A stretch of DNA of 32,000 nt. Origin: Methylorubrum extorquens (GTDB taxonomy: Bacteria > Pseudomonadota > Alphaproteobacteria > Rhizobiales > Beijerinckiaceae). Below the pieces are notes generated by a model that searched no databases, was not told the DNA's origin, and saw only the letters and a list, made by a program, of their open reading frames with translations. The translations under genes were made by a program, and so were the position numbers. The stretch spans positions 60,001 to 92,000 of the forward strand of contig LT962688.1 in assembly GCA_900234795.1 (NCBI GenBank). The letters run 5' to 3'. Positions 776 through 27,137 of this stretch are shown here, piece after piece (the stretch's first letter is position 1; every line of letters begins with the position of its first letter).

Positions 776-3289
776 TAGTGCCCAACCAGTTGAGGTAGTG
801 GGAAGGATCGAGAGATGTCACACTCTGTTCGATGGCCGAATGAGCAGTCTCGTTACGTACAGGAGGCTGGTTAAGAGCCTTGAGAGCTTTGATAACGTCT
901 TCGGCGGTCGGTTTTACAAGGCTAGTGGTGTGAGGGTGCCGGACGAGATCAGAAATGCCCGAACTCCACCCCGTCGTCAGGATGGGTAGTGCCGTGCGCG
1001 TCGCTTCCCGCGCGAGGAGAGCGAGCGAAACTGGATCGGCTGAGGGAAGCCACAGAAGTTGCGCGCGAGTCGCGCCGACATACTCCATGAGTGTTCCCTT
1101 GGACGATTGTTCGGCAAGATGGAGGGAGCGCCGCCGGAGGCAGCTCGGCGAGAGGCGAGGCATCCGGCCAAGTGCTGTGACACTGAAAGGAAGATCGTTC
1201 TCGTCTATGAAGCGGCAAACATCGTCCACCAAGTGGAGCTGCTCGCTGTCCAAAACGCTCGCGAAAATCAAAACGCGACACCGCCCGTCTATGTCGTTCC
1301 GGAATGAGCGAGCAGCAACATGACGCGGACCTGGCAGCCCAGGTAGAGACACTGTCTCGAAGTGCAAAGACGGATAGTCCCCGCAAAGCTTTTCGGAAAA
1401 TTCCCGCGTGGGCACAAGAACTCGCTCAGCACGCTGAAGCGGCTCCGCTAGTCTGCGGCCTTTGCGGCCCAATCGCGTTACACCTTCACTGCCCAGCAAT
1501 GTAATGTCGAACGGGAGTAAAAGGGCATCTAAGAATGAGTCCAGGATGCGCGATTGCCAGGACAATCCGATTACGTCGACACGTGTGACACCCCACTTGC
1601 GCAGCAGTGGACCAAGCCCGGCCGGACCAATGTTAAGCATCCGACGCGGACCCGTATTCACAGCGGTTCCTTGAACGACGAACGAAGGATGTTGGTCCTG
1701 CACGCCGTAAATCGTCAGGATGTTGACGAACCGGCACAACTGCTCGGTAAGCAGCTTGGCATAGAGATCAGCTTCTCGGCTATCATCAAGAACAAGAGCA
1801 AGGCACGGCTGTCCCGGTGGAAGTATCGGTGTGTCCAACGGAGAAAAATGCGAGGATGACTCGGGCGTTGATGATGGCAGTGAAGGAGGAACTACTTCAG
1901 CCCCAGCTGCTGGTCGAGGTGTAACGATGATATCGCCGCAAAGCGCGATCTGCCGAAGTCGGCCCCAACCCTCCCCAATCAGCTCGCGCTTTAGGGCAGC
2001 TTGTACCAATCCAATCCTAGTAACGGCGCCAGAGAACGGACCAAAAACTTTGCTTAATCCATCGTCCTCCAAGACAGCTTCGACTTCGCCTGTGAGAACT
2101 GGATCAAGACGAGCAGTGAACTCGGACCCATTAGAGGGTCTTGAGTCATCCAGAAAGAGGACTACGTCCGAATCTTGGCTGACGTCACAGATCCTCTTGA
2201 GGACCTCGGTCCAGCTAAGACTGTCGCTCAAAGGTAGGACTTTCCCGGAGCGGTGCATCTGAGCGATGTTACGGCAAACGGCTGTCGGGCTGACAGCGGA
2301 CCTCTCTACCGTGAAAAGAAGGCGCGTAGCGCTGTACCCGCTAGCGGCAAGGCGAGCCTGTACCAGCAGCCCCTCCTCCAGGCGCGAGCCTGGTGCAACG
2401 ATGGTCAACACTTGGCGTGCGCGCAACTCGCAGCCCCAACTCTCCAGCCAAGTACCGGCGCCCGGCATAGGCGCCATGTAAGGAGCAGTCTGATGCAGCC
2501 GGGACGAAAGCCGCATTTCGGAAGATTCGACGTGCTGACGTTGATCGCCGGTAATTTCGGCTAGCATCTCCATCCAGAGCGTGCCGGCTTCGTCGAGGTG
2601 CCGGCCGTCTCGGGAGCCCTGGTCCGGGTGCTGTCGGCTCTGGACAAGAACTCCAGGCACCGGAACGAAGCGGAAGTGCCGCGACATTCGGAACCAGAGT
2701 TGGTAATCTTGGGTCGTGGGCAAACTTTCGTCGAAAGTGCCAGCGACTTCAAAGCAAATTCGGGGGATTAACAGCGCACAACCGTTGAGCCTGCCCTCCA
2801 AGACATTCCAAACTGCATGCTCGTTCGCTTTAACAGAGTTTGTAGCGTCGACTGGCTGCAGTATATTTCGAAAGCGGTCGATGAGCACGAAATCGCTGAA
2901 CGCGATTGCCGGCTGCGGCAGCCGTTGCAACGCCTCGACTTGCGTAGCTATTTTCGCAGGGTAGTAAAGATCGTCGTGGCTGAGCCAGCTAAAATAGGCT
3001 CCTGTCATCGCGTGAATGCCAGCATTCAACGCGGAGGCAACGCCGCCGTTCGGTTTGTGGATGTAGCGGATCTGGTCTCTTACGACTCCGCCACTGATCG
3101 CGTTGCGCCATCATCGTTCGATCCATCGTCGACGACGACGACTTCGATGTTCTGCCAAGTCTGAGCCAGAACACTGTCAATAGCTTCAGCCAGCCATTTT
3201 CCACCGTTGAAGACTGGAATGATAACAGAAACGAGTGGTCCACCCCTAACAGACAGCAAGTTCGGGCTCGCTTTGCACGTGTCAGACAC
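762..3289 (-). pseudogene. large multidomain glycosyltransferase (GT2 N-terminal domain, unknown middle, GT4-like C-terminal domain) interrupted by an apparent 1-nt frameshift near 3080-3090
   Basis: ORF 3080..3289 encodes a canonical GT2 start ([50 protein letters not shown]). The frame of ORF 762..3029 is open upstream of its listed TTG start and reads ...RDQIRYIHKPNGGVASALNAGIHAMTGAYFSWLSHDDLYYP, the continuation of the same GT2 core. The two pieces are offset by one base. The C-terminal ~200 aa (RVLIFASV...ALPILTTGWSSGISDLV...) resemble a GT4 Rossmann domain. A sequencing error could mimic the frameshift. Confidence 0.55.
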
Positions 3290-3300
3290 AGGTGACCTCG

Positions 3301-4542
3301 TCAGGACGAACGCGAGGCGCGATTCGCCTCTATCATGGCGGCGTAAGCGCGGAGGACAGGTTCACGATTGAGGGCCGGATCCCAGCGTCGTTCCACCTCC
3401 TCACGGTTGCGAAGGGCGGCGGCATCCACGAGTTCGTCATCCTCGGCAGCACGGATTAGGGCCTGCGCCATCGCGGCCGTGTCGTGCGGATCGACGATAA
3501 AGGCATCGCGGCCGTTGCGTACCCATTCCGACGCACAGGAGGTGTTACCGACGATTGGGAAGGTTCCGACACTCATCGCTTCCAGCAGCGTCGTGCCAAT
3601 CCCATCCGAGATCCCCGCTCCGATGACGATCCGGGCGTCGGCGAGGCGTCGCATGGCGTCTGAATGCCGTTCCAAGTGCGGCGCCGCGTCGATGTCTAGG
3701 CCGGTGGATGTCCGAATTTCGGATATCGCCCGGCTTCCTTGGGAACCTGTGAAGAGCACCTGAATAGGACGTGTCCTAAGCCGAGGCGCAGCCAAATAGA
3801 TGGCCGACAAGATTTGCAGGCCTCGACCGGACCAGCCATGATAACCCTTGACCAGGATCGCCTGGCGTCTGGATGGGGGCAGCGCGCCTTCCTCGGCATC
3901 AATTTGCATGCCGCCTGAAGCAGGCAGAGGATCGAAGGCGGCACCGTTGTAACCGAGCGAGCGCGCCAATGCGACGTCGCGGCCGCATTCCGCCCAATAA
4001 CCGTCAATATGATTAAACAAGCGATGAATTATGGTTCTGTGTCGTGGCAGCTTTATAAACAGCTGGATGTCGCTTCCCCAATTCGACAGAAGCCAGGGTG
4101 GAAACGTTCCACCAATTCTCCGCTTCGCTTCGAGCGTCAGGTAACCTGCGACCTGTACTTCCATACTGTGTACGAGATCCGGATCGAGCGCGCGGATCGC
4201 CGAGGTAACGTGATGGGCGGTGAAGAGTTGGACCGAGCTGGCGAAAGCCGGGTGCTCCTCGCGCTGGAAGCCTGCACCGATCTCCACCGCTCCTGCTTCT
4301 GCCCAAGAGATTGAGCTGTGATCAAAAATGCCCACCTCGCCGGGCTGAAGGGTATGAATGTCATCTTCGCCTCTGACGAAGCGGAACGGCGCGAGTTCCC
4401 CGACAGGAGGGGCGTCCATAACCGGAATCACGATGAAGCGCGTATCGTCGTCGCGAACCATTGCAAGCCATCGGGCGACGTGGATACTGTTGACCATCGC
4501 GACAACCGCAACGACGGGACCGCTCTTCCTCTTCGAGGTCAT
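3301..4542 (-). CDS. glycosyltransferase family 4 (GT-B, group 1)
   Basis: The C-terminal region [55 protein letters not shown] is the typical GT4 E-x7-E donor-binding region. ATG at 4542; a TTG at 4557 is an alternative start. The stop lies 9 nt upstream of the next minus-strand gene. Confidence 0.8.
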
Positions 4543-4547
4543 TGAAA

Positions 4548-5011
4548 TTAGTTCCAAAGGCAGGCAGCAAGAATATTAGCCAGGTGTCGCGTGTCGTGTG
4601 CAGCTCTCGCCGACTTAATCGCCTGTGTCAGCCCCTCGCTACGCAGCGGAAACTGAACTGCGACGATCATCGGGATAGCCCTCATCTCGGCAGCGATCAG
4701 CAAGGGATGCTCGGCGCAATCGAAGGTGACGCTGGCATAGAGATTCGCGCCGATAAGCGCTTTCTCGCCCTCTTCGCCCGCGATGAGACGCACATCAGCC
4801 CCGGTGTCATATCCAAGGACAAGAGCCGCGACGGGTACGACTGGCGCTGTTGCCCTATGACGTCGATGGAGACCTCGCTAAGGCGGGGACCGCACAGGTG
4901 GAGCGACGAGATTAGGTGAAGCGCGCGTCCCTGCTCATCTTCGCGACCATCGATGACAAGACGCACGACCGGTGGGTTGTTATGGCCTTCGGGAGAAGCA
5001 GAAGTGCCCAT
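4548..5011 (-). pseudogene. hypothetical protein, apparently frameshifted (two overlapping ORF pieces)
   Basis: ORF 4697..5032 (…NPPVVRLVIDGREDEQGRALHLISSLHLCGPRLSEVSIDVIGQQRQ) and ORF 4548..4793 overlap. The frame of the latter is open further upstream (…APVVPVAALVLGYDTGADVRLIAGEEGEKALIGANLYASVTFDCAEHPLLIAAEMRAIPMIVAVQF…). Together they look like one ~150-aa gene offset by 1 nt around 4800-4830. The stop at 4548 lies 5 nt from the GT4 ATG, an operon-like spacing. No family recognised. Confidence 0.25.
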
Positions 5012-5399
5012 TTTCAATGCGCTAAGCCTCAATGTGTGCAGACAAACAGCCCGGCCGCTGCATTGTCACCAATGATTTACAGACTGACAACGTCACTGCA
5101 CCTCGTTGTCTCGTCCGAACCATCAAAGGAAAGGTCACGATGGCGCTACATAGCTCGTGCAAGCATCATGCGACAGTGAAGCTTGTCGAGCAGGTGGACC
5201 CTTACGCGATCTTTCCTCGCACGGAAAGCGGGCTGCGCTAACCGGGCGCCCAGGCCGTACCGCACTTAGCAAACCATTGCCGGCGGATGCGGGGCGACAG
5301 TAGGTTCACGTACGGGGGCGCTGGTGGGCTTAGAAGTCAACGGCTCCGGTCTGCGCATCGCTGCTTCACATCCGACCGCCACGAACTTTCAAACGCTAA

Positions 5400-5892
5400 G
5401 ACCGTCACCGGCGATCAGGTGACTGCCACCGTCGAGGTTTACCTCGCAGATCCTGAGGCGGGCGGGTCAACGACAAGCGGTTCGAGTGGATCTGTCGGCG
5501 GGAAGGCCTGAAAGCACCGGCCAGGCAATCCAAGCGTGGACGCATCCGGGACGGGGACGGCTCATGCCTGCGGCTACGGGCAGCCTCTCAACCATCATAG
5601 TCCCGGGGTTTCAGGGGATTAATGCCGCACGCAGATCAGCCGATCAGCCTCAACCCAATCAACGCCACTGTGCTTCTGAGCAGGCCATCCGCTGCACGTC
5701 TTGGCGGCGGATGCCGCCACAGCGAGGCGTAGGCCAATCCCGATGCTGGGCCGGTCGGATGGCTTCCCGCCATTGCCAGATGAAAAGCAGGAACAAAGAT
5801 CCTCACCCCAGTGTTTCGCCGCAACGAGACCATACATCTCGGCGAAATCAGTCGCTTATCGACCACCAGTCCATGAAGGTGCAATAAAATAA
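5400..5892 (+). mobile_element. degenerate IS3-family transposase (OrfB) relic
   Basis: 5466-5600 translates to VNDKRFEWICRREGLKAPARQSKRGRIRDGDGSCLRLRAASQPS*. This matches the conserved ...VNxKRVERIWRREGLKVPxKQPKRGRLWLNDGSCIRLR... stretch of IS3-family (IS407/IS2-like) OrfB as I remember it. The upstream ...TSQILRRAG is in another frame. A second piece ending ...ATRPYISAKSVAYRPPVHEGAIK* (stop 5890-5892) resembles the OrfB C-terminal ...RPHSSLGYRPPAPE motif. The DDE core is missing and stops and frameshifts are present. Confidence 0.6.
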
Positions 5893-5963: not shown

Positions 5964-7076
5964 ATGAAGAAACTGGCTCTGATCACCGGTGGAGCAGGCT
6001 TTATAGGCCGGCATCTTGCGAGTGCGCTGCTGGCGCGGGGTTACCGAGTCCGCGTGCTCGATAGCCTGATCGAGCAGGTGCATGGCGGCACCGGCCAGCC
6101 CCTCTCTCTCGATCCGGGCGTGGAGTTCGTCGAGGGCGATGTCCGTGACGCCGAGGCGGTGGCGCGGGCGATTGCGGGTGCGACCCATGTCGTCCACCTG
6201 GCGGCGGAGGTCGGCGTCGGGCAGAGCATGTACGCGGTCGAACGCTACGTCTCGGTCAATGATTGTGGGACCGCGACCCTGTTTCAGGCGCTGATCGAGG
6301 CGCCGGTACAGCGCGTCGTCGTCGCTTCCTCCATGAGCATCTACGGCGAGGGCCTCTACCGGACGGAAGCCGATGCCACCGTTGAGGACGCCGTGCGCCC
6401 GCCGCGCCGCCCCGGCGAACCGTGGGATCCGCCCGATCAGCAGGGCCGCCCGATGCGCCCCGTGCCGACCCCAGAATCGAAGCGCCCGGCGCTCGCCTCG
6501 GTCTATGCGCTGACGAAGTACATGCAGGAACGCCTGACGCTCACGCTCGCCCCCGCCTACGGCATGGAGGGCGTGGCGCTCCGCCTTTGGAACGTCTACG
6601 GGCCGGGCCAGGCGCTCTCGAACCCGTATACCGGCGTGCTGGCGATCTTCGCGGCGCGCCTCCTCCACGGACAGCCGCCGATGATCTTCGAGGACGGCGA
6701 GCAGCGGCGCGATTTCGTACATGTCGAGGATGTGGCCCAGGCCTTCGTGCTGGCGCTGGAGCACCCGGCCGCCGCCGGGCAGGTCTACAATGTCGGCTCC
6801 GGCGAGGACCGCACCGTCAACGAGGTGGCGCGTCTGCTCGCCCGCGCCATGGGTCGCGAGGAGATCGCTCCGCAGATTACGGGGCAGGCGCGGGCCGGCG
6901 ACATCCGGCACTGCATCGCGGACATCGGCAAGATCACCCGCGAACTCGGCTACGCGCCAAAGCGCGACTTCGCCGAAGGATTAGCCGAACTCGCGGCATG
7001 GGTTGCCGAGCAGCAGGCGGTCGACCGCGTGGCCGAGGCAAGGCGCGAACTCGAAGCCCGAGGTCTCGTCGCGTGA
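5964..7076 (+). CDS. NAD-dependent epimerase/dehydratase (extended SDR, UDP-hexose 4-epimerase-like)
   Basis: MKKLALITGGAGFIGRHLASALLARGYRVRVLD (GxxGxxG Rossmann fold), a YALTK catalytic YxxxK, and a C-terminal substrate domain. AGGAG lies 13 nt upstream. The start was chosen over the track start 5925 because the Rossmann motif then sits at residues 8-16. Confidence 0.85.
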   Translation: MKKLALITGGAGFIGRHLASALLARGYRVRVLDSLIEQVHGGTGQPLSLDPGVEFVEGDVRDAEAVARAIAGATHVVHLAAEVGVGQSMYAVERYVSVNDCGTATLFQALIEAPVQRVVVASSMSIYGEGLYRTEADATVEDAVRPPRRPGEPWDPPDQQGRPMRPVPTPESKRPALASVYALTKYMQERLTLTLAPAYGMEGVALRLWNVYGPGQALSNPYTGVLAIFAARLLHGQPPMIFEDGEQRRDFVHVEDVAQAFVLALEHPAAAGQVYNVGSGEDRTVNEVARLLARAMGREEIAPQITGQARAGDIRHCIADIGKITRELGYAPKRDFAEGLAELAAWVAEQQAVDRVAEARRELEARGLVA

Positions 7077-8164
7077 GCGGGCCGGCCACGACCGCCACGC
7101 GCCCGGTCCTCGTCACGGGTGGTGCCGGCTTCGTCGGCGCCAACCTCGCCGACCAGCTCGCCGCCGAGGGGCAGACCGTCCTCGTCTACGATGCTCTGAC
7201 GCGTCCCGGCGTCGAGGCGAACCTGGCTTGGCTCACCGAGCGCCACGGCGCGCGGATCGTGCCGGTGATCGCCGACATCCGCGACGGTGCTGAGCTCGCC
7301 CTCGCGGTGCGGGAGGCCGGCGCGGTGTTCCACTTCGCCGCCCAAGTTGCTGTGACGACGAGCATGACCGCGCCTTGGGAGGACATGGAGGTCAATCTCG
7401 GCGGTACGTTGACCCTGCTGGAGGCCCTGCGCGCCCGCCGGGGTGCGGTCCCGTTGCTCTTCGCCTCGACCAACAAGGTCTATGGCGGCTTGCCCGACGT
7501 TGAGCTGGCGGTCGAGGGTGACGCCTACCGGCCGACCGATCCAAACTTGCGCGCCCATGGTGTCGGCGAGGATCGCCCGCTCGATTTTCACACCCCCTAC
7601 GGCTGCTCGAAGGGCGCGGCGGATGCCTACGTGCTCGACTACGCCCGCAGCTACGGCTTGCCGACCGTCGTGATGCGCATGAGCTGCATCTACGGACCCC
7701 GCCAGATGGGCAACGAGGACCAGGGCTGGGTCGCCCATTTCCTGATCCGCGCACTGACGAACCGAACCGTGACCCTCTACGGCGACGGGCGGCAGGTGCG
7801 CGACATCCTTCATGTCCGCGACGCGGTCGCGGCCTACCGAGCGGCGCTGGCGCGGATCGACCGGGTGGCCGGACGAGCGTTCAACCTCGGCGGCGGCCCG
7901 GACAACGCGGTGAGCCTGCGCGGGCTGATCGCCCATCTCGGCACGCTGCTCGGGCGCGAGGTCGGGATCGAAACCGGCGCGTGGCGGCCCGGCGACCAGC
8001 GCTACTACGTCTCCGACACGCGCCGCGCCGCATCGATGCTCGGGCTCGAACCCCCGCTACCCTGGCGCGAGGGTGTGGCCGACCTCGCCGCGTGGCTCAC
8101 GCAATGGCTCGCCGTAGAGGCCACGACGAACCGGGCCGCCCGTCAACCGGAGGCGGTGCTATGA
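7073..8164 (+). CDS. NAD-dependent sugar-nucleotide epimerase, CDP-paratose/tyvelose 2-epimerase-like extended SDR
   Basis: GTG at 7073 overlaps the upstream stop (GTGA). VLVTGGAGFVGANL, STNKVYG, YGCSKGAADAYVLDYARSYGLPTVVMRMSCIYGPRQMGNEDQGWVAHF closely follow the RfbE-type 2-epimerase pattern as I recall it. The 580-aa track ORF start (6422) overlaps the previous gene and is rejected. Confidence 0.85.
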   Translation: MSGPATTATRPVLVTGGAGFVGANLADQLAAEGQTVLVYDALTRPGVEANLAWLTERHGARIVPVIADIRDGAELALAVREAGAVFHFAAQVAVTTSMTAPWEDMEVNLGGTLTLLEALRARRGAVPLLFASTNKVYGGLPDVELAVEGDAYRPTDPNLRAHGVGEDRPLDFHTPYGCSKGAADAYVLDYARSYGLPTVVMRMSCIYGPRQMGNEDQGWVAHFLIRALTNRTVTLYGDGRQVRDILHVRDAVAAYRAALARIDRVAGRAFNLGGGPDNAVSLRGLIAHLGTLLGREVGIETGAWRPGDQRYYVSDTRRAASMLGLEPPLPWREGVADLAAWLTQWLAVEATTNRAARQPEAVL

Positions 8165-9456
8165 GGGTCGCCTTCGTCAATCCGCCCTGGGACTATCGCA
8201 ACAGCATCTATTTCGGCTGCCGCGAGCCCCATCTGCCGCTCGAACTCGGCTACGCCGCCGCTTTGCTGGAGGCGGGCGGCCACGAGACGCTGCTCGTCGA
8301 TTGCCATCTCGAAGGCCTGAGTACCGCGGAGGGCGCTGAGCGGATCGCGGCCTTCGCGCCCGCGATGACCGTGATCACCACGGCGCCCACCTACCTGTTC
8401 TGGCGCTGCGCCCCGCCGGAGATGCGGGTGCCGCGCGCCTTCCTCGAAGCGCTTCAAGGCCGCGGTGGGCGCACCGTCGCGGTCGGCCCACATGGCTCGG
8501 CCACGCCACGACCGACGCTGGAGAAACTCGGTTGCGACGTGGTCGTGCGGGGCGAGTGCGAGGCGATCGTGGCTCGTCTGGCCGAGACGGACGATCTGCG
8601 CAGCCTGCCCGCCCTCGCGTATCGCGATGCAGAGGACCGTGTCGTCGTCGCAGGGCCGCCCCATGCCGGGCGCTTCACCGACTTGCCGGCGCTTGCCTGG
8701 CCCGATGCCTGGATCGCCCGCCACCATCACCATCACCACCGCTTCGACACCGCGCCCGACGGGCCCGGCGCCGAGATCGAGGCCTCGCGCGGCTGCCCCT
8801 ATACTTGCAGCTTCTGCGCGAAGATCGATTTTCGCGATGCCTATCGTCGCCGCGACCTGCCGATCGTCCTTGAGGAGATCGACGGGCTGATCTCCCAGGG
8901 CGTCACCTACCTCTACTTCGTCGACGAGATCTTTCTGCCGCAGAAGCCGCTTCTGGAGGCCCTGGTCGGACGCCAAGTGAAGTTCGGGGTGCAGACCCGG
9001 ATCGATCTGTGGAAGCCCGATATGCTCGACCTGCTCGGGACGGCGGGCTGCGTTTCGATCGAGGCGGGCATCGAGAGTCTGACCGAGGAGGGACGCGCCG
9101 CACTCGACAAGCGCTGCCGCGCCTCGACCGACGACCTCGCCGAGCGCCTGATCCACGCCCGCCGCACCGTGCCATTCGTCCAGGCGAACCTGATCGCGGT
9201 GGCGGGCGACGATCCCGATCTCGTCGCCGCCTGGCGCGACCGGCTGCGCGGCGCGGGGGTCTGGGCGAACGATCCGGTGCCGCTCTACCCCTATCCCAGC
9301 TCACCCGATTACCGGCGGCTCTGGGGCGAGCCGGACGACGCGGCCTGGGAGCGGGCGCACGCCCATTATCTCAGTCAGTTCACCCGCTTCAGCGACATCC
9401 AGGAGGAGCGCCCGCTCCCGCTGCCCGAGTTGGAAGCGACCTGCGGATGCCGCTGA
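8161..9456 (+). CDS. B12-binding domain / radical SAM domain protein (class B radical SAM)
   Basis: ATGA overlap with the upstream gene. The N-terminal cobalamin-binding-like Rossmann region is VAFVNPPW...LGYAAALLEAGGHETLLVDCH...VITTAPTY...VAVGPHGS. The radical SAM cluster motif is EASRGCPYTCSFCAK (CxxxCxxC). Confidence 0.9.
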   Translation: MRVAFVNPPWDYRNSIYFGCREPHLPLELGYAAALLEAGGHETLLVDCHLEGLSTAEGAERIAAFAPAMTVITTAPTYLFWRCAPPEMRVPRAFLEALQGRGGRTVAVGPHGSATPRPTLEKLGCDVVVRGECEAIVARLAETDDLRSLPALAYRDAEDRVVVAGPPHAGRFTDLPALAWPDAWIARHHHHHHRFDTAPDGPGAEIEASRGCPYTCSFCAKIDFRDAYRRRDLPIVLEEIDGLISQGVTYLYFVDEIFLPQKPLLEALVGRQVKFGVQTRIDLWKPDMLDLLGTAGCVSIEAGIESLTEEGRAALDKRCRASTDDLAERLIHARRTVPFVQANLIAVAGDDPDLVAAWRDRLRGAGVWANDPVPLYPYPSSPDYRRLWGEPDDAAWERAHAHYLSQFTRFSDIQEERPLPLPELEATCGCR

Positions 9457-10553
9457 CTGCTGCCCGTCCCCACATCCTGATGAGCGCCGACGCGCTGGGC
9501 GGCGTCTGGCAATACACGCTCGACCTCGCCGCCGGCTTCACCCGCCGGGGCGCCTCCGTCAGCGTCGCCTTGATGGGACCGGCGCCTGCGCCCGAGCGGA
9601 TCGCGCGGGCGCAAGAGATCAGCGGCGCCCGCATTCTCACGACGAACCTGCCCCTCGATTGGACCGCCGAGAGTGCCGCAGAAGTTCGAGATGCATCGGA
9701 CGCGCTCGCCCGCCTCGCGGAGGAGACCGGCGCCGACCTCGTCCACCTGCATAGCTCGGCTCTGGCCCTCGCCGACTTCACCGCGCCGGTCGTGGCGGTC
9801 TGCCATTCCTGCGTTGCGACCTGGTGGGCCACTGTGGGGTCGGGCCCGCTGCCCGCGGATCTGGCGTGGCGGCGCTACCTCAACGCGCAGGGCTGCCGCA
9901 AAGCCGACCGGCTGATCGCCCCGACCCACGCCTTCGCCCGGACGACGCAGGCGGCCTACGGACTGGCGCTGGCGCCCCTCGTCGTGCGCAACGGCCGGAA
10001 TGTCCCCGTCTCGTCCGGGGCGGAACCCGCGTCCCACGTCTTCTCCGCCGGGCGCCTGTGGGACCTTGCCAAGAACGCCGCCGCGCTCGATCGGCTGGCC
10101 GCGCGCCTATCGGTGCCGGTTCGCGCCGCCGGCCCCGTGGCCGGGCCGACCGGCCAACGGGTGACGCTTACCGCCCTCGACTGCCTCGGCCGCCTCGACG
10201 ACGAGGAGATCGCGCGGGAGCTGAGCCTCCGGCCGGTCTTCGTGAGTCTTGCCCGCTACGAGCCTTTCGGCCTCGCGGTGCTGGAGGCAGCGGGCGCCGG
10301 TTGCGCCCTGGTGCTCTCCGACATCGAGAGTTTTCGCGAGTTGTGGGACGACGCAGCGCTGTTCGTCCCGTCCGACGACGATGCGGCGGCGGCCCGCGCC
10401 GTCCAAGGCCTCTTTGCCGACCCGGCCTGCCGCGCGGCGCTCGGCCGGGCCGCCCGCACCCGCGCCGCCGCCTATGGCACCGAGGCCATGGTTGCGGGCG
10501 TGGCCCGTATCGTCCGCGGCCTGCACCCGGCGCTCGACGAGGCGGCGGCATGA
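9447..10553 (+). CDS. glycosyltransferase family 4
   Basis: The ATG at 9447 overlaps the upstream gene by 10 nt. ILMSADALGGVWQYTLDLAAGF is the GT4 N-terminus, and FVSLARYEPFGLAVLEAAGAGCALVLSDIESFRELWDDAALFV is the E-x7-E region. Confidence 0.85.
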   Translation: MPLTAARPHILMSADALGGVWQYTLDLAAGFTRRGASVSVALMGPAPAPERIARAQEISGARILTTNLPLDWTAESAAEVRDASDALARLAEETGADLVHLHSSALALADFTAPVVAVCHSCVATWWATVGSGPLPADLAWRRYLNAQGCRKADRLIAPTHAFARTTQAAYGLALAPLVVRNGRNVPVSSGAEPASHVFSAGRLWDLAKNAAALDRLAARLSVPVRAAGPVAGPTGQRVTLTALDCLGRLDDEEIARELSLRPVFVSLARYEPFGLAVLEAAGAGCALVLSDIESFRELWDDAALFVPSDDDAAAARAVQGLFADPACRAALGRAARTRAAAYGTEAMVAGVARIVRGLHPALDEAAA

Positions 10554-11677
10554 GGATCGTCTACTTCACCCACTCCCTCGCCTCGTGCTGGAATCACGGC
10601 AACGCCCACTTCCTGCGCGGCGTGCTGCGCGAGTTGGCCGGCCTTGGCCATGCAATCGAGGCCTACGAGCCAGAGGGCGCCTGGAGCCGGGAGAACCTGC
10701 TTCGCGACCATGGCCCCGCCGGACTCGAGGCCTCGCTCGCGCCCTATCCTGAGCTGTCGCCGAAGACCTACGCCACGATCGAGGCGGCCGTGGAATACGT
10801 CGAGGGCGCCGACCTCGTCGTCGTCCACGAATGGAACGAGCCGGCTCTGGTCGCTGCGCTCGGTCGGGCCCGGAAGGGCGGCCGCATCGACACGCTTCTG
10901 TTCCACGATACCCATCACCGCGCGGTGAGCGCGCCTGACGCGATGCGCCGTTTCGACCTCTCGGGCTACGACGGCATCCTCGCCTTCGGCGAGACGCTGG
11001 CCGAGGTCTATCGCAGCTGGGGCTGGGGCGCGCGCGCCTACGTCTGGCACGAGGCCGCCGATACGCGCCTGTTCCGGCCACCGGCGGAGACGGAGGCGCC
11101 GCGGGCCGGTCTCGTCTGGATCGGTAACTGGGGCGACGGCGAGCGCACGCAGGAACTTGAGACGTTCCTGTTCCGTCCAGCACAGGCCGCCGGCCTCTCC
11201 CTCGACATCCACGGCGTGCGCTACCCCGCCGAGGCGCTCGCGACGCTCGAACGCTACGGCGCCCGCTATCACGGCTGGGCCCCGAACGCCGCCGCGCCCA
11301 TCCTGTTCGCCCGTGCGCTGGCGACGGTTCACGTGCCGCGCCGCTTCTATGTCGAGGCCTTACCCGGCATCCCGACGATCCGGGTGTTCGAGGCCCTCGC
11401 CTGCGGCCTGCCGCTGGCCTGCGCCCCTTGGAACGATGCCGAAGGGCTGTTCACGCCGGGCTCGGACTACCTGATCGCCCGCGACGGAGAGCAGATGGAG
11501 GCCCACCTGCTGGCGCTGCGCGAGGATGCGAGCCTGCGCCGGTCGCTCGCCGCCCATGGCCTCGCCACGATCCGAGCCCGGCACACCTGCCGGCACCGCG
11601 CCGATGAACTCCTCGCGATCCATGACTCCTTGACCACGTCCTTGAACGTGCCTGCCCGGATGGAGGCCGCCCCGTGA
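10550..11677 (+). CDS. CgeB-like glycosyltransferase (Glyco_trans_1_2/DUF3880-type), paralogue 1 of 3
   Basis: ATGA overlap. The N-terminus is MRIVYFTHSLASCWNHGNAHFLRGVLRELAGLGHAIEAYEP and the C-terminus is ...PTIRVFEALACGLPLACAPWNDAEGLFTPGSDYLIARDGEQM. Both signatures recur in the next two genes. Confidence 0.75.
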   Translation: MRIVYFTHSLASCWNHGNAHFLRGVLRELAGLGHAIEAYEPEGAWSRENLLRDHGPAGLEASLAPYPELSPKTYATIEAAVEYVEGADLVVVHEWNEPALVAALGRARKGGRIDTLLFHDTHHRAVSAPDAMRRFDLSGYDGILAFGETLAEVYRSWGWGARAYVWHEAADTRLFRPPAETEAPRAGLVWIGNWGDGERTQELETFLFRPAQAAGLSLDIHGVRYPAEALATLERYGARYHGWAPNAAAPILFARALATVHVPRRFYVEALPGIPTIRVFEALACGLPLACAPWNDAEGLFTPGSDYLIARDGEQMEAHLLALREDASLRRSLAAHGLATIRARHTCRHRADELLAIHDSLTTSLNVPARMEAAP

Positions 11678-12780
11678 AAATCGCGTTCTACGGCTCCTCC
11701 CTGCTCTCGTCCTACTGGAACGGGGCGGCAACCTATTACCGGGGCATGCTCGCCGACCTCGCAAGGCGCGGCCACCGCATCTCCTTCTACGAGCCGGACG
11801 CCTTCGACCGGCAGAGCCACCGCGACATCGACCCGCCGGACTGGGCCGAAGTACAGGTCTATCCCGCGACCATCGAGGCCGTCCGCGCGGTGATCGCGCA
11901 AGCTGCGGAAGCCGACGTCGTCGTCAAGGCAAGCGGCGTCGGCGTGTTCGACGACGAATTGCTGGAAGGCGTCGTCGCCGCCGCGCGTCCGGACGCCATC
12001 CGCATCTTCTGGGATGTCGACGCGCCCGCGACGCTGGCCGAGATGCGGGCCAACCCGGACCACGCCCTCCACCGGGCGATGCTCGCTCTCGACTTCGTGC
12101 TGACCTATGGCGGCGGCCCGCCGGTGATCGCGGCCTATGAGGGATTCGGAGCGCGTGCCTGCATCCCGGTTTACAACGCGCTGGATTCCGAGACTCACCA
12201 TCCAGTCCCGCCTGATCCGCGCTTCTCGGCCGACCTCGCCTTTCTCGGCAACCGGCTGCCGGACCGTGAGGCGCGGGTCGAGCGCTTCTTCCTCGCGGCC
12301 GCCGCGCGCCTGCCGGAGCGGAGCTTTCTACTCGGCGGCAGCGGCTGGGAAAGCCGCGGGCTTCCGCTTAACGTCCGCCATCTCGGCCACGTCTCGACGC
12401 GCGACCACAATGCCTTCAACGTCAGCCCCCGCGCCGTTCTCAACATCGCCCGCGACAGCATGGCGGCGGTCGGCTTCTCGCCCGCCACCCGCGTGTTCGA
12501 GGCGGCGGGCGCGGGTGCCTGCCTCATCACCGACGCCTGGGAAGGCCTCGGCCTGTTCCTCAAGGAGGGCGAGGAGGTGCTCGTCGCCCGCGACGGGCGC
12601 GACGTCGCCGACCACGTCGCCGCGCTGACGCCGGAGCGCGCCCGCGCCATCGGCGAGGCCGCCCGCCTGCGGATCGCCGCCGAGCACACCTACGCGCGCC
12701 GCGGTGCGCAGGTCGACGCGATTCTCCGGGACGAAAGGGAGCGCCGGGCCTGCGGGGTGCTTCGCCGGAGCGTCGCATGA
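11674..12780 (+). CDS. CgeB-like glycosyltransferase, paralogue 2 of 3
   Basis: GTGA overlap. MKIAFYGSSLLSSYWNGAATYYRGMLADLARRGHRISFYEPD ... SPATRVFEAAGAGACLITDAWEGLGLFLKEGEEVLVARDG. Confidence 0.75.
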   Translation: MKIAFYGSSLLSSYWNGAATYYRGMLADLARRGHRISFYEPDAFDRQSHRDIDPPDWAEVQVYPATIEAVRAVIAQAAEADVVVKASGVGVFDDELLEGVVAAARPDAIRIFWDVDAPATLAEMRANPDHALHRAMLALDFVLTYGGGPPVIAAYEGFGARACIPVYNALDSETHHPVPPDPRFSADLAFLGNRLPDREARVERFFLAAAARLPERSFLLGGSGWESRGLPLNVRHLGHVSTRDHNAFNVSPRAVLNIARDSMAAVGFSPATRVFEAAGAGACLITDAWEGLGLFLKEGEEVLVARDGRDVADHVAALTPERARAIGEAARLRIAAEHTYARRGAQVDAILRDERERRACGVLRRSVA

Positions 12781-13892
12781 CGAGCGCGCCGCTGCGCCTC
12801 GTGGTGCTGGGTCTGAGCCTGTCCTCGTCATGGGGCAACGGCCACGCCACCACCTACCGCGCCCTGCTTCGGGCCTTCGCGGCCCGCGGCCACGATGTCC
12901 TGTTCCTGGAGCGCGACGTGCCCTGGTACGCGGCCCACCGCGACCTCACCGATCCGGACTTCTGCAGACTGGCCCTCTACGCCGACCTCGACGACCTCGA
13001 GGACCACCGCGCAGCGATCGAACAGGCGGATGCCGTCGTCGTCGGCTCCTACGTGCCCGATGGGATCGCGGTGGGTCGCCGCGTCCTCGCCTGGGCGGAG
13101 GGCACCCGCGCCTTCTACGACATCGATACGCCGGTGACGCTGGCGAACCTCGCCGCCGGCACCTGCGCCTATCTCGAAGCCAATCAGATCGAAGCTTACG
13201 ACCTCTATCTCTCCTTCACCGGCGGCCCGACCCTGGAGCGACTGGAGGAGCGCTACGGCTCGCCCGCGGCGCGTGCTCTCTACTGCTCGGTGGATCCGGA
13301 GGCCTATCCGCCGTTTGCAGGAGAAAAAGCCTATGATCTGAGCTATCTCGGCACCTACAGCCCCGACCGGCAACCGATCCTGGAGCAACTGCTGATCGAA
13401 CCGGCCCGCCGCGCGCCCGACCTGCGCTTCGCGGTCACCGGCCCGCAATACCCGGACGGGATCGACTGGCCGGCCAACGTGACCCGCAGCGATCACCTGC
13501 CGCCGGAATCCCATCCGGCCTTCTACGGGCAGAGCCGCTACACCCTGAACGTCACCCGCGCCGACATGACCGCGGCGGGCTACAGCCCGAGCGTGCGCCT
13601 ATTCGAGGCCGCCGCCTGCGCCATCCCGATCCTGAGCGACCGCTGGGACGGCCTCGACACGATCCTCGCGCCTGGCCGCGAGATCCTGTGCCCCGAGGGG
13701 CCGGACGCCGTGCTGGCGATCCTGCGCGACTGGCCTGAACCCGAGCGCCGCCGGATCGGCGAGGCGGGCCGTGCCGCGATCCTCGCCCGGCATTCCGCCG
13801 CCCACCGCGCCGCAGAATTCGAAACGCACCTGCGCGAAGCAGCCGCCCGGCTGGCATTCCTCCGAACGCCGCCTCGAACGGTCACCAACTGA
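12777..13892 (+). CDS. CgeB-like glycosyltransferase, paralogue 3 of 3
   Basis: ATGA overlap. LRLVVLGLSLSSSWGNGHATTYRALLRAFAARGHDVLFLERD ... SPSVRLFEAAACAIPILSDRWDGLDTILAPGREIL. Confidence 0.75.
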   Translation: MTSAPLRLVVLGLSLSSSWGNGHATTYRALLRAFAARGHDVLFLERDVPWYAAHRDLTDPDFCRLALYADLDDLEDHRAAIEQADAVVVGSYVPDGIAVGRRVLAWAEGTRAFYDIDTPVTLANLAAGTCAYLEANQIEAYDLYLSFTGGPTLERLEERYGSPAARALYCSVDPEAYPPFAGEKAYDLSYLGTYSPDRQPILEQLLIEPARRAPDLRFAVTGPQYPDGIDWPANVTRSDHLPPESHPAFYGQSRYTLNVTRADMTAAGYSPSVRLFEAAACAIPILSDRWDGLDTILAPGREILCPEGPDAVLAILRDWPEPERRRIGEAGRAAILARHSAAHRAAEFETHLREAAARLAFLRTPPRTVTN

Positions 13893-13903
13893 GGGCAACA
13901 GCG

Positions 13904-14943
13904 ATGGACAGACAGGCTGAATGGGTGCTCGTCGCTGGTGGGGCCGGCTTCATCGGCTCGCATCTCGTCGATGCTCTGCTGGCGCGGGGCGCACGCGTCG
14001 TCGCCCTCGATAGCCTGCTCACTGGCCGCCGCGACAACCTTGCCCATCTCAGCCGCGAGCCGCGTTTCGAGTTCGTCGAGGCAGACATCACGGAGCCGCT
14101 GCCGCGGCTGCCGCGCTTCGAACGGGTATTCAATCTCGCCTGCGCGGCCTCACCCCCGCACTATCAGGCCGATCCGATCCACACGATGCTGACGAGCGTC
14201 GTCGGAACCCTGCGTCTGCTGGAGCGGGCGCGCAACGAGGGGGCGCGCTTCCTCCAGGCCTCGACCAGCGAGGTCTACGGCGACCCGCTCGTGCATCCGC
14301 AGCCGGAAGCCTATTGGGGCAACGTCAATCCGACCGGCCCGCGCGCCTGCTACGACGAGGGAAAGCGCGCCGCCGAGACGCTGGCCTTCGATTTCGAGCG
14401 GGGCCAGGGGCTGGAAGTCCGGGTCGCGCGCATCTTCAACACCTACGGACCCCGGATGCGGGCCGATGACGGGCGCGTCGTCTCGAACGTGATCTGTCAG
14501 GCGCTCGCCGACGCGCCCGTCACCGTCTACGGCGACGGCGAGCAGACCCGCTCGTTCTGCTACGTCACCGACCTCGTCGAGGGGCTGATGCGGCTCATGG
14601 CGTGCGAGGCCGCGCCGGGCGGCCCGGTCAATCTCGGTAACCCGCGCGAAATGACGGTGGCCGAACTCGTCAGCCTGGTCGCGGAGATGACCGGTACGCG
14701 CTCGCCCGTGGTGCGCCGCCCGCTTCCCGTGGACGACCCGCAGCGTCGCCGCCCGGACATCGCCCGCGCGCAGGCGCTGCTCGGCTGGTCGCCGAAGGTG
14801 GCGCTGGAACAGGGCCTTGAGGCGACAATCGCGTGGTTTGCCGGCGAGATCCGCGCGCCCGAGCAACCCGTCGTGAAGCCCCGATCCATCGGTGGACGCC
14901 ACCTTCGCCCGGTCGAGGCCGCCCTTGCGCGGCAGGCCCCGTG

Positions 14944-14944
<1 letters not shown>
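13904..14944 (+). CDS. UDP-glucuronate decarboxylase (UDP-xylose synthase)
   Basis: [58 protein letters not shown] and [10 protein letters not shown] are hallmark UXS/ArnA-decarboxylase motifs. GAGGG lies 8 nt upstream. This is the only junction in the operon with a spacer (11 nt). Confidence 0.9.
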
Positions 14945-16037
<1,093 letters not shown>

Positions 16038-16041
<4 letters not shown>

Positions 16042-16823
16042 GGCGGGTCTTTCTCGTGCGCCATGCGAGCCACGACCGGCTCGGGAAGGTGCTGTGCGGG
16101 CGAATGCCCGACGTTTCGTTGAGTGCGCAGGGTCGGGCTGAAGCGGAGGCGATGGCGACCGCGCTCGTGCGACGGCTCGCTCCCGACCTCCACACATCGT
16201 CAGCCGAGCAGGATCGCGCGCCTCTCCTCTCCCTCGCGGGGAGGTGGGAGGAGCCGGAGGTGGCTCAGGACGAGGCGCCCCGGTACCCACTGCCCGCCCC
16301 TGACTCGCCGGGAGGAGGGGAGCGCACGCGTCTCGCCCCGGTGATCGGTGGGGAACGAACACCCCGAAGCGGCATCCGAGTCCTCTCGAGCCCACAGACC
16401 CGCAGCCGGGAAACCGCCGCGCCGCTGGCACAGAAGCTCGGCGCCGCGATCGAGACCGCCGACGAGATCGACGAGATCGAGTTCGGCGCCTGGACCGGTC
16501 GCGCCTTTGCCGAGTTCGCCTCCGATCCCGCTTGGGTCGCCTGGAACGCGGAACGCACCACCGCCCGCCCGCCGGGCGGCGAGAGCATGGGCGAGGTGCA
16601 GGCGCGCGCCCTTCGCCTGCTCGACCGCCTCGGCCGCGAGGAGGCCCCGCCCGCGATCCTCGTGAGCCACGCCGACACGATCCGCGCCGCCTTGCTCGGC
16701 GTGTTGGGGCTCAGCCTCGACGCCTATGACCGCCTCGTCGTCGCCCCGGCCTCGTGGAGCGAGCTCGCGCTCTGGCCCGGCGGCGGCCGGGTGGTCTCGA
16801 TCAACGAGCGGGTGAGCCCATGA
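16038..16823 (+). CDS. histidine phosphatase family protein (phosphoglycerate-mutase-like) with an internal insertion
   Basis: ATGA overlap. VFLVRHASH (RHG-type catalytic motif), [15 protein letters not shown], and a C-terminal [13 protein letters not shown] (second catalytic His). At 261 aa it is ~60 aa longer than usual because of the segment at 16188-16373. Confidence 0.8.
16188..16373 (+). other. about 186-nt in-frame insertion inside the histidine phosphatase gene (low-complexity, repeat-like)
   Basis: It separates the RH(A/G) motif (aa 8-10) from the SSPxxRxxxTA motif (aa 117-127). The usual distance is about 40-50 aa. It encodes [62 protein letters not shown]. It contains pyrimidine/purine mirror tracts (cctctcctctccctcgcggggaggtgggaggag at 16221-16253, ccgggaggagggga at 16308-16321). 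Third-position GC is visibly lower than in flanking codons. Confidence 0.4.
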
Positions 16824-17608
16824 CGCGTCTTGCGACGGATGCCCCCAGTTCCGAGGCATTACGCCGGGAGGCCGACGCCCTCGGGCCCTGGTTCCACAAC
16901 ATCGACCTCGGCGGGGTCTGGACTGCGCCCGATCACTTCCTCGGCGATTATCCAGGGTTGAAGTGGCGTCGGTTCGCGTCCGCGCTTCCCGCCGACCTCA
17001 CCGGCAAGTCCGTGCTCGATATTGGCTGCAACGGCGGCTTCTATTCTATCGAGATGAAACGTCGCGGTGCGTCCCGGGTGCTCGGCCTCGATTCCGACGA
17101 GCGCTACCTCGCGCAGGCCCGCTTCGCGGCTGACCACCTTGGCCACGACATCGAGTTCCGCAACCTCTCGGTCTACGATGTTGGGGCTCTGGCCGAGCGC
17201 TTCGACGTGGTTCTCTTCATGGGGGTGCTCTACCACCTGCGCCACCCGCTGCTGGCCCTCGACCTGATCCACGAGCACGTGGCCGGTGATCTCCTGGTGT
17301 TCCAGTCGATGCTGCGCGGATCGTCTCAGGTCGAGCCGGTGGCGGACGATTACGACTTCTGGGACATGGATCAGTTCGAGCGGCCCGGTTACCCGCGGCT
17401 GCACTTCGTCGAGCATTCCTACGCCCATGACTGGACGAACTGGTGGATCCCCAACCGCGCGGGAATGGAGGCGATGCTGCGCGCGAGCGGCTTCACGATC
17501 GAGAGCCGGCCGGAGGCGGAGGTTTATCTCTGTCGGCGGGCGCCCGCACCGGCTGGGGCAGAAGCCGTCTATCCGGCACGCGGGATCAACGGGAGGGAGG
17601 GCCGATGA
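16820..17608 (+). CDS. CmoB-like class I methyltransferase (Methyltransf_9/DUF1698 type)
   Basis: ATGA overlap. GPWFHNIDLGG, VLDIGCNGGFYSIEM (SAM motif I), FDVVLFMGVLYHLRHPLLAL and WWIPNRAGMEAMLRASGF parallel the CmoB signature blocks as I recall them. Confidence 0.85.
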   Translation: MTRLATDAPSSEALRREADALGPWFHNIDLGGVWTAPDHFLGDYPGLKWRRFASALPADLTGKSVLDIGCNGGFYSIEMKRRGASRVLGLDSDERYLAQARFAADHLGHDIEFRNLSVYDVGALAERFDVVLFMGVLYHLRHPLLALDLIHEHVAGDLLVFQSMLRGSSQVEPVADDYDFWDMDQFERPGYPRLHFVEHSYAHDWTNWWIPNRAGMEAMLRASGFTIESRPEAEVYLCRRAPAPAGAEAVYPARGINGREGR

Positions 17609-18543
17609 TCGAAGCGGTCATGCTCTGGAACGAGCCCAATAATAAGTCTCACTGGGATCCGGAGATCGACCCCGACTGGTTTCTGTTCGGCGAGATGGTG
17701 AAGCAGGCCTCCCGCGCGATCCGTGCGGAGGCACCGGACCTGCCCCAGGTGCTCGGCGGCATCTCGCCGATCGATCCGGTGTTCATGCAGCACATGCAGG
17801 CCCGAGGGGTGCTTGATGGGCTCGATGCGGTGGCCGTGCATGGCTTCCCCCTCGACTGGAACCTGTGGCCGATTCACGACTGGCCCCAGAAGATCGCCGA
17901 GATCCGCGCGGTGACTCACCTACCGGTCTGGGTCTCGGAGGTCGGCGTGTCGAGTTTTGGTGCCGAGGAGGTCCAGGCCTGGGGCTGCCGCCGCACCGCG
18001 GAGCTGCTGCGGGGGCAGGCCCCGCGCATCCACTGGTACAGCCTCTACGACCTGCCGCGGGAATGGGAGGCCACCACCCGCCACCGCGAGGCGGAGGGCT
18101 CCTCCTATTACCGCCACTTCCACATGGGCTTGCTGCGCCAGGACGGCACGCCGAAGCTCGCGCTGGAGGAATTCGCCCGCTGCACCCCGGATTTTGGGCT
18201 GTGCCAATGGTTCCACTACCAGGATCATCGCTTGGACGAAGCGGTAGCCTGGATGAAGCGCCTCGGCGTCACCTACCTGCGCACCGGCCTGTCCTGGGCC
18301 GACAGCTTCCGCCCCGACGCCCTCGACTGGTTCGACCGGCAGATGACGGCTCTGCAGGACTTTAAAGTGACGGTGACCTTCTGCTTCACGCCCGAGCACC
18401 GCGGCATCGCCGCCCACCACACCAGCCCGCCGCTGGTTCGAGAAGAGTTCGCGGAGTTTTGCGCCGCGATGGTGCGTCGATACGCGGATCGCCAGCCTGT
18501 CCAGGTCGAAGCCTTGCCGATACCGGAGATGCCGTTTCTATAG
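17605..18543 (+). CDS. clan GH-A-like glycoside hydrolase (annotated-type: beta-xylosidase/GH39- or GH5-like), segment order apparently permuted
   Basis: ATGA overlap. LWNEPNN at aa 8-14 (acid/base NEP motif), AVHGFP, VWVSEVG at aa 109-114 (nucleophile Glu ~102 aa after NEP), IHWYSLYD and MGLLRQDGTPKLA (a typical barrel end). This is followed by LGVTYLRTGLSWAD...KVTVTFCFTPEH...EEFAEFCAAMVRRY, which looks like strands 1-3. Confidence 0.65.
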   Translation: MIEAVMLWNEPNNKSHWDPEIDPDWFLFGEMVKQASRAIRAEAPDLPQVLGGISPIDPVFMQHMQARGVLDGLDAVAVHGFPLDWNLWPIHDWPQKIAEIRAVTHLPVWVSEVGVSSFGAEEVQAWGCRRTAELLRGQAPRIHWYSLYDLPREWEATTRHREAEGSSYYRHFHMGLLRQDGTPKLALEEFARCTPDFGLCQWFHYQDHRLDEAVAWMKRLGVTYLRTGLSWADSFRPDALDWFDRQMTALQDFKVTVTFCFTPEHRGIAAHHTSPPLVREEFAEFCAAMVRRYADRQPVQVEALPIPEMPFL

Positions 18544-18593: not shown

Positions 18594-18790
18594 CTCGTTG
18601 TGTCGGCTGAGAGCTACGGCCGCGACGGCGACCGCAAGATCAGCGCGTGGCTGAAGGCGGTCGGCTGACGGGTCAACGACAAGCGGGTCGAGCGGATCTG
18701 GCGGCGGGAAGGCCGGAAGGTGCCGGCCAAGCGAACCGTCGAGCAAAGACCGAGCCTGCACTGACTTCGAAGTCGGACCACCGCGTGAGG
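18594..18790 (+). mobile_element. degenerate IS3-family transposase (OrfB N-terminal) relic
   Basis: 18594-18764 translates to LVVSAESYGRDGDRKISAWLKAVG*RVNDKRVERIWRREGRKVPAKRTVEQRPSLH*. This is the ...YGRYGYRKITALLKAxGWxVNxKRVERIWRREGLKVP... region of IS3-family OrfB, with TGA replacing the conserved Trp codon. 18669-18732 is 56/64 identical to 5463-5526. Confidence 0.6.
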
Positions 18791-20357: not shown

Positions 20358-20413
20358 CCTGGTACAGCTTGAGAGCGCGGTCCCGTGAGGACCGCGTGAA
20401 CCCCAGACATACG

Positions 20414-20895: not shown

Positions 20896-21638
<743 letters not shown>

Positions 21639-21642
<4 letters not shown>

Positions 21643-24356: not shown

Positions 24357-24366
24357 GGTTTGCTCT

Positions 24367-24972: not shown

Positions 24973-24995
24973 GGGAGGTCTCCGGGACCTGTCGT

Positions 24996-27086: not shown

Positions 27087-27114
27087 GGATTCGGGTGTCC
27101 GGAGAGGGCGAGGA

Positions 27115-27137
27115 GGCCCGGCAAGCGAGGCCGGGCC
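27115..27137 (-). other. GC-rich stem-loop in the spacer between the 62-aa ORF and kdpB
   Basis: ggcccggc (27115-27122) / 7-nt loop / gccgggcc (27130-27137) form a perfect 8-bp inverted repeat. No U-tract follows on the coding (minus) strand, so it is not a canonical intrinsic terminator. Confidence 0.3.

Follow-up and report, generated by a model that had tools for sequence, protein, structure and literature searches.

Most of the characterised B12 radical S-adenosylmethionine (SAM) enzymes are methyltransferases, and the true members of this group hold cobalamin base-off, without a ligand from the protein (PMC12931638). The same 2026 review states that AprD4, the radical SAM 1,2-diol dehydratase of apramycin biosynthesis, clusters with the B12 radical SAM enzymes and yet binds no cobalamin. 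It also points out that the residue two positions after the third cluster cysteine is W, Y or F in radical methylases and Glu in TsrM. Other described relatives include BchE, the anaerobic Mg-protoporphyrin monomethyl ester cyclase, which has the class-B architecture and is itself non-methylating, and the alphaproteobacterial B12-domain radical SAM enzymes HpnJ, HpnR and HpnP, of which HpnJ is linked to cyclitol ether formation. Here, we analysed a window of 32,000 nucleotides from Methylorubrum extorquens (contig LT962688.1, positions 60,001 to 92,000 of the forward strand; coordinates below are positions within this window). Our subject is gene 3, the third of 12 plus-strand genes that span 5964-18543 and in which nearly every stop codon overlaps the next start. 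Gene 3 encodes a radical SAM protein with a B12-binding-like domain that belongs, with very little doubt on sequence grounds, to the curated family TIGR04295. Methylcobalamin-dependent C-methylation is the single most likely outcome for this enzyme, with a probability of roughly 0.35. See Table 1 for the coordinates of all features.

An earlier sequence-only reading had placed at 8161-9456 a gene with a B12-binding-like N-domain and a CPYTCSFC motif, and this frame proved real and correctly delimited. The start is an ATG at 8161 that overlaps the TGA stop of gene 2 (ATGA), with GGAGG positioned 8-12 nt upstream, and the stop codon occupies 9454-9456. The 80 orthologues we collected from other genomes have the same start methionine, lengths of 428-439 residues, and identities of 69-88%. 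The NCBIfam model TIGR04295 (B12_rSAM_oligo) matches the protein over all of its profile positions (1-422 of 422) at 724 bits, against a cut-off of 400, with an E value of 4.7e-218. Therefore, gene 3 is no chance open reading frame. At NCBI, the model has the type 'hypothetical equivalog', meaning a curated group of orthologues whose function is not known. The family is tight, with scores of 666-724 bits for every member and a conservation of at least 97% at 192 of the 431 positions across the 80 orthologues, which come from several alphaproteobacterial orders. It is also already curated together with a named, conserved twelve-gene neighbourhood. Compared with this TIGR04295/TIGR04290 (meth_Rta_06860) system, our copy has the same full-length match and the same twelve-gene context, and nothing sets it apart.

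We then compared the protein with the models of characterised families. The best of these is BchE, which aligns over residues 2-335 and scores 77.8 bits against an equivalog cut-off of 481. The HpnR model gives 51.7 bits (cut-off 650), PhpK 44.9 (600), AprD4 40.6 (500), HpnJ 30.9 (578), and the TsrM-type tryptophan methylase 24.5 (500), so that AprD4 ranks below BchE, HpnR, ApyD and others. With a best cross-family score this far under its cut-off, the protein does not fall inside a family of known unrelated function, a placement that the sequence-only reading had named as one that would refute its proposal. BchE further differs in size (a 497-position model against 431 amino acids) and in setting (tetrapyrrole rather than sugar), and the hopanoid genes that belong with HpnJ, HpnR and HpnP are absent from the cassette. 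The same genome encodes its own BchE (521 bits) and its own HpnJ (817 bits) elsewhere, and therefore the gene 3 protein is a third, separate enzyme. Two distant relatives from its clade (P0107 and P0142) have their next-best scores to BchE, to the ladderane-lipid radical SAM family, and to HpnJ. A metagenome scan using P0107 as the query returned remote partial matches only.

The CX3CX2C motif of the gene 3 protein is canonical and is kept in at least 97% of the orthologues. Pfam Radical_SAM (PF04055) matches at 40.2 bits, above its gathering cut-off of 29.5. Together with the partial TIM barrel of the structure model, which aligns to radical SAM cores from many families, this motif and domain match place the protein in the radical SAM superfamily. 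The sequence-only reading had described the enzyme as class B and cobalamin-dependent. A class-B-like architecture is supported. However, dependence on cobalamin goes beyond what can be read from the sequence. Neither fold nor motif can prove it, because AprD4 is reported to cluster with the B12 enzymes without binding cobalamin and the true binders need no protein ligand. Within the N-domain, the loops that follow the Rossmann strands (NPxW, TAPxYLFWRC, GPHGS, and RGExE) are near-invariant in TIGR04295, which fits a putative cofactor or substrate site on that face of the domain. The linker before the radical SAM core contains an HxHHHH run that could be a metal or cofactor site. The run becomes degenerate in more distant relatives, and AprD4 and TokK have nothing like it at the corresponding place. 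Matches to unrelated PDB proteins at residues 187-193 were set aside, as we read them as this natural histidine run aligning with purification tags. Six further cysteines (C20, C83, C133, C297, C319, and C428) are conserved in the family.

Genome content was of limited help with the cobalamin question. Among the five smallest carriers, we found none that lacks every sign of cobalamin use. A cobalamin riboswitch is present in four of the five smallest cassette-bearing genomes, the fifth being 85% complete, and CobS was matched in only one of the five, a check that does not discriminate. The small carriers G344, G181, and G727 have a cobalamin riboswitch and no CobS match, and may import cobalamin rather than make it. 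No Rfam element, cobalamin riboswitches included, was detected in the window.

An AlphaFold2 model of the gene 3 protein, built with 36 sequences, has a predicted local distance difference test score (pLDDT) of 91.4 and a predicted template modelling score (pTM) of 0.91. Foldseek ranks TsrM first (2e-20), followed by AprD4, OxsB, QCMT/MgmA, CysS, and TokK. AprD4 (6fd2) has the highest target-normalised template modelling (TM) score, at 0.65, and OxsB leads the structural matches by Z score (27.6), with the scores of the top matches lying within 1 Z unit. The predicted fold thus matches the cobalamin-binding OxsB, TsrM, and QCMT and the cobalamin-free AprD4 equally well. By sequence, the best solved relative is AprD4 (PDB 6fd2) with an E value of 9e-8, and the family profile scores 72.7 bits for AprD4, 49 for TsrM, 45 for QCMT, and 34 for TokK among solved structures. 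The two proteins are similar in length (457 amino acids in AprD4 and 431 here) at ~20% identity. However, AprD4 has a C-x3-C-x3-C cluster motif in place of C-x3-C-x2-C, and has no HxHHHH run. OxsB, TsrM, QCMT/MgmA, TokK, and CysS are 14-21% identical to the gene 3 protein, which lacks the extra N- or C-terminal domains of these enzymes. TokK and CysS have a Trp two residues after the third cluster cysteine, where the gene 3 protein has a Lys.

The sequence-only reading had set this enzyme in an operon of inositol synthesis and glycosyl processing, and we recovered that setting in the form of an inositol-3-phosphate synthase, four glycosyltransferases, and one glycoside hydrolase (GH)-like protein. 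We are confident that the gene 3 product is a radical SAM enzyme and that its substrate is one of the intermediates of an inositol-glycoside pathway. As we picture it, the cassette would build a small intracellular inositol-linked oligosaccharide. The inositol-3-phosphate synthase (gene 9) would supply inositol phosphate, a glycosyltransferase of family GT4 (gene 4) would glycosylate it, and the histidine phosphatase (gene 10) would strip the phosphate. Three CgeB-like transferases (genes 5-7) would then lengthen the chain with sugars tailored by the short-chain dehydrogenase/reductase (SDR) proteins and the UDP-xylose synthase, and the TIGR04290 enzyme (gene 11) would O-methylate the product. 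The gene 3 enzyme would cleave SAM reductively to form a 5'-deoxyadenosyl radical, which would attack a sugar nucleotide or the inositol glycoside by removing hydrogen from one of its unactivated carbons. The substrate radical would then most likely pick up a methyl group from methylcobalamin bound at the N-domain, and the result would be a C-methylated, branched sugar or cyclitol. Gene order suggests a step near the SDR-tailored sugar donor and the GT4 enzyme. This is also suggested by a database representative (P0002, 844 amino acids) in which a TIGR04295 domain (676 bits) is fused to a GT4 domain; the fusion occurs in this one sequence only and could be either a natural functional link or an assembly or frameshift artefact at the overlapping stop and start.

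The prior is highest for C-methylation, since methylases make up most of the class-B enzymes characterised so far. Several observations weigh against it. BchE, the best-scoring characterised family, is a non-methylase, and the cassette already holds a conventional methyltransferase in gene 11. The Pfam B12-binding domain (PF02310) scores 31.0 bits on the N-domain (E 2.5e-7), just below its gathering score of 32.1. The position two residues after the third cluster cysteine is occupied by K221, which is conserved in TIGR04295 and is K or R in the wider clade. The corresponding residues are W215 in TokK, W in CysS, and V in QCMT by alignment, and E236 in TsrM; in the Methylorubrum genome itself, BchE has Gln and HpnJ has Trp. 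The gene 3 protein thus lacks the hydrophobic residue of the radical B12 enzymes that methylate sp3 carbons (TokK/CysS type). K221 would lean mildly away from a standard radical methylase, though the rule is a weak one since HpnJ has W. Lastly, our literature search found no paper on the TIGR04295 family or the cassette, nor an experiment on any member. One paper on inositol in Ensifer aridi was considered as a source on the operon and rejected, as it concerns inositol catabolism, which is different from the present operon.

The alternative that stands up best is another, non-methylating radical reaction of the BchE, HpnJ, or OxsB type, in which cobalamin would either be absent or serve for something other than methyl transfer. 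Such an enzyme could contract or form a ring, couple a sugar to a cyclitol through a C-C bond, oxidise a carbon to a ketone, or epimerise a sugar or inositol carbon by a radical route. The leading position of BchE among the characterised families speaks for this possibility, as do the next-best scores of P0107 and P0142 and the rank of OxsB by Z score. The polar K221 resembles the cases that are not radical methylases, and the inositol synthase of the cassette offers a carbocycle as substrate. However, all of these scores are far under the family cut-offs, the genome has a dedicated BchE and HpnJ, no feature singles out one such reaction, and the structural scores are nearly equal. We consider this explanation possible but somewhat unlikely.

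A second alternative, which was absent from the sequence-only reading, is an AprD4-like, cobalamin-independent radical 1,2-diol dehydration. Here, hydrogen abstraction beside a hydroxyl of a nucleotide sugar or glycoside would be followed by elimination of the neighbouring hydroxyl to give a keto-deoxy sugar. The GalE-like SDR (gene 1) would reduce this product, in the way that AprD3 reduces the product of AprD4, and C2 would be epimerised by the tyvelose-epimerase-like SDR (gene 2). Together, the three genes would form a module that yields a 3-deoxy- or dideoxy-hexose donor and takes the place of the classical E1/E3 deoxygenation. AprD4-type dehydration followed by SDR reduction would explain why two SDR genes precede the radical SAM gene and why gene 2 resembles a dideoxyhexose epimerase. 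Gene 2 is closest to CDP-tyvelose 2-epimerase, an enzyme that classically acts on a 3,6-dideoxyhexose. This pair of SDR genes also lies upstream of the radical SAM gene in the orthologous loci, and in the window gene 3 is translationally coupled to gene 2. AprD4 is also the best solved relative by sequence, is nearly equal in length, and has the top target-normalised TM score. It shows in addition that the architecture can work without cobalamin (PMC12931638). In these respects, diol dehydration suits the invariant SDR-SDR-radical SAM trio at least as well as the sugar or cyclitol C-methylation and carbocycle rearrangement proposed from sequence. Against it, the NCBIfam AprD4 score is below a tenth of its cut-off, the spacing of the cluster motif differs, identity is only ~20%, and the structural match is tied with cobalamin binders. 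Furthermore, conservation in TIGR04295 is among the highest in those N-domain loops that, in B12 enzymes, lie beneath the corrin, and the operon has no nucleotidyltransferase or 4,6-dehydratase for a complete dideoxyhexose route. On balance, we regard an AprD4-like dehydratase as rather unlikely.

A broader proposal can be made for the family as a whole. TIGR04295 enzymes would perform radical chemistry without a characterised precedent on a sugar nucleotide or inositol glycoside, and the product would be a novel intracellular inositol oligosaccharide found in ~4-5% of alphaproteobacterial species, many of them associated with plants or lichens. Examples would be the formation of C-C bonds with the help of cobalamin, the remodelling of a carbocycle, or a new way of making deoxy or branched sugars. 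We hold this to be speculative, with the odds clearly against it.

Table 1. Features of the gene 3 protein and of the twelve-gene operon, in window coordinates.
Feature	Position	Strand	Evidence or remark
Gene 3, TIGR04295-family radical SAM protein with B12-binding-like domain, 431 aa	8161..9456	+	NCBIfam 724 bits; 80 orthologues; AlphaFold2 pLDDT 91.4
N-terminal Rossmann-type (B12-binding-like) domain, residues ~1-165	8161..8655	+	PF02310; strand/helix pattern of the model; conservation; alignment to the TsrM N-domain
HxHHHH run (H188, H190-H193) in the linker before the radical SAM core	8722..8739	+	96-99% conserved in an 81-sequence alignment
Radical SAM partial TIM-barrel core, residues ~200-345	8758..9195	+	Pfam PF04055 at residues 207-337; fold matches
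CPYTCSFC (C212/C216/C219), CX3CX2C site for a [4Fe-4S] cluster, followed by conserved A220-K221	8794..8817	+	
Gene 1, GalE-like SDR epimerase/dehydratase with an insertion	5964..7076	+	Pfam Epimerase 192.6 bits in two stretches; best PDB matches 6wjb, 4zrm
Gene 2, CDP-tyvelose/paratose 2-epimerase-like SDR	7073..8164	+	PDB 9rl0 E 1e-71, 1orr E 1e-70
Gene 4, GT4-family glycosyltransferase	9447..10553	+	Pfam Glyco_transf_4, Glycos_transf_1; start overlaps the end of gene 3 by 10 nt
Genes 5-7, tandem CgeB-like glycosyltransferase paralogues	10550-11677, 11674-12780, 12777-13892	+	Pfam PF13524, 115-132 bits each
Gene 8, UDP-glucuronate decarboxylase (UDP-xylose synthase)	13904..14944	+	354 bits to human UXS1
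Gene 9, inositol-3-phosphate synthase homologue	14944..16041	+	TIGR03450 520 bits (below equivalog cut-off 638); Pfam Inos-1-P_synth 120 bits
Gene 10, histidine-phosphatase-family enzyme	16038..16823	+	Pfam His_Phos_1 132.6 bits in two stretches
Gene 11, TIGR04290 (CmoB-like) SAM-dependent methyltransferase	16820..17608	+	383 bits against cut-off 300
Gene 12, 312-aa protein with clan GH-A-like motifs NEP and SEVG	17605..18543	+	Motifs

The profile and PDB matches of the operon proteins are listed in Table 1. The sequence search for gene 6 found no solved relative, and the Pfam and NCBIfam profile searches with gene 12 gave no match. Gene 10 probably encodes a sugar- or inositol-phosphate phosphatase; a segment of ~100 residues that does not match the family lies between its N-terminal RH motif and the remainder. 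In the gene 12 product, the acid/base motif NEP is at residues 9-11 and the nucleophile-like SEVG follows ~100 residues on; the protein looks like a circularly permuted TIM-barrel hydrolase. We found a clear membrane-spanning segment in none of the 12 operon proteins using 19-residue hydropathy windows. A few windows are at or just above the usual threshold (up to 1.72), and all of these are in known soluble folds, such as the initial Rossmann strand of gene 8. No flippase, polymerase, ABC exporter, or lipid-carrier transferase is present among the 12 genes. With soluble-looking proteins and no exporter or lipid-carrier genes, the simplest product to assume is a small glycoside that is soluble and stays inside the cell.

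Statements on synteny are based on tblastn searches of the 12 window proteins against the 80 orthologous loci. Genes 1-7 are colinear in nearly all of them, and gene 1 is usually missing only where the contig is cut. Genes 9, 11, and 12 are usually close by, often on the opposite strand, and gene 12 is conserved in the cassettes at 63-90% identity. Gene 8 is frequently replaced or absent and is thus not universal, and gene 10 is the least conserved gene of the cassette. In cassettes that have no inositol synthase (INO1) and methyltransferase genes within 10 kb, both genes were found elsewhere in the genome in five of five cases.

The closest named relatives of the gene 3 protein are from Methylorubrum species, at 86-88% identity. 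Further members of TIGR04295 occur in Methylobacterium, Azospirillum, Belnapia, Roseomonas, Lichenihabitans, Mesorhizobium, and many metagenome-assembled Alphaproteobacteria. The family is patchy in distribution for all its tightness in sequence. In an even sample of 401 alphaproteobacterial species, TIGR04295 is present in 17 and TIGR04290 in 17, with both in 15; the linkage is obvious, bearing in mind that the species are related and hence the co-occurrences are not independent.

The combination of an inositol synthase and sugar-modifying genes raises the question of bradyrhizose. Busset 2016 (PMC4743980) describes an eleven-gene operon of sugar-modifying enzymes, the genes of which are not listed in the text, and a title within the reference list of that paper calls bradyrhizose an inositol-fused sugar. 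The cassette might correspond to this eleven-gene 'gdh' operon, needed for the bradyrhizose O-antigen of photosynthetic Bradyrhizobium, in which case the gene 3 enzyme would help to build the inositol-fused bicyclic sugar or a relative of it. The eleven-gene sugar-modification operon of that paper fits this idea, as does the presence in the cassette of dehydratase-like SDRs, an inositol synthase homologue, and a radical enzyme. Among 401 genomes of the family that contains a Xanthobacteraceae carrier, TIGR04295 is found in 22, reaction-centre genes in 48, and both in 7. However, the two largest genomes with photosynthetic reaction-centre genes in this sample (7.2 and 7.4 Mb) are without TIGR04295. 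An O-antigen-ligase domain lies within the reported 44 kb on the same contig in none of five genomes with both cassette and reaction-centre genes, four of these assemblies being fragmented, and the only same-contig case is 327 kb from the cassette. The cassette also lacks the polymerase, flippase, ABC exporter, and lipid-carrier transferase, and many of the genera that carry it are not known as bradyrhizose producers. After these indirect genome tests, the bradyrhizose connection is unsupported rather than refuted, and we consider it highly improbable.

Two co-oriented direct repeats of 75 nt, 84% identical to each other, bracket the operon at 5457-5531 and 18663-18737, and translate to a fragment of an IS3-type transposase (…VNDKR.E.I.RREG…). 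The flanking genes of the window, which are glycosyltransferases upstream and TAXI and kdp genes downstream, adjoin the cassette in none of the 80 related loci. The transposase remnants and unshared flanks are compatible with relocation or horizontal transfer of the operon. These two features, and the lack of the cluster cysteines in some database representatives, could also suggest that gene 3 is a decaying or non-catalytic copy on a mobile island, but this has next to nothing to recommend it given the intact frame and motif, the 87-88% identity to the nearest species over the full length, the presence of all family-invariant residues, and the preserved translational coupling.

Outside the operon, window positions 1-5500 form a block of lower GC content (~0.58 versus ~0.70) with minus-strand glycosyltransferase genes at 762-3029 (a weak GT2-like match) and 3301-4557 (GT4-like). 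Downstream of the operon are a TAXI-type TRAP solute-binding protein at 18843-20462 and a complete kdp potassium-uptake locus (kdpE, kdpD, kdpB, kdpA) on the minus strand at 20896-29051. A 423-residue protein with a catalase domain is encoded at 30211-31482. We found no exact EcfG-type general-stress promoter (GGAAC-N15-18-CGTT) in the window; a near match has GGAAC at 5790-5794 and TGTT 17 nt later. The motif does occur upstream of gene 1 in 6 of 75 orthologous loci (L020, L055, L066, L067, L076, and L084), against ~0.4 expected from shuffled sequences. EcfG-type regulation may therefore hold for some carriers of the cassette.

Novelty at the level of the window is low because gene 3 is an ordinary orthologue of a curated, uncharacterised family, and no element of a new kind comes with the window. 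What is of value is the TIGR04295 family, which pairs a tightly conserved radical SAM enzyme with eleven fixed partner genes in genetically tractable hosts. It is a useful test case for which of the 'B12-binding' radical SAM proteins really use cobalamin. Solving it would give a new C-methylase of sugars or cyclitols, a second radical sugar dehydratase of the AprD4 type, this one outside antibiotic pathways, or a reaction of a new type. An inositol-containing metabolite made by Alphaproteobacteria that live with plants and lichens would be identified at the same time.

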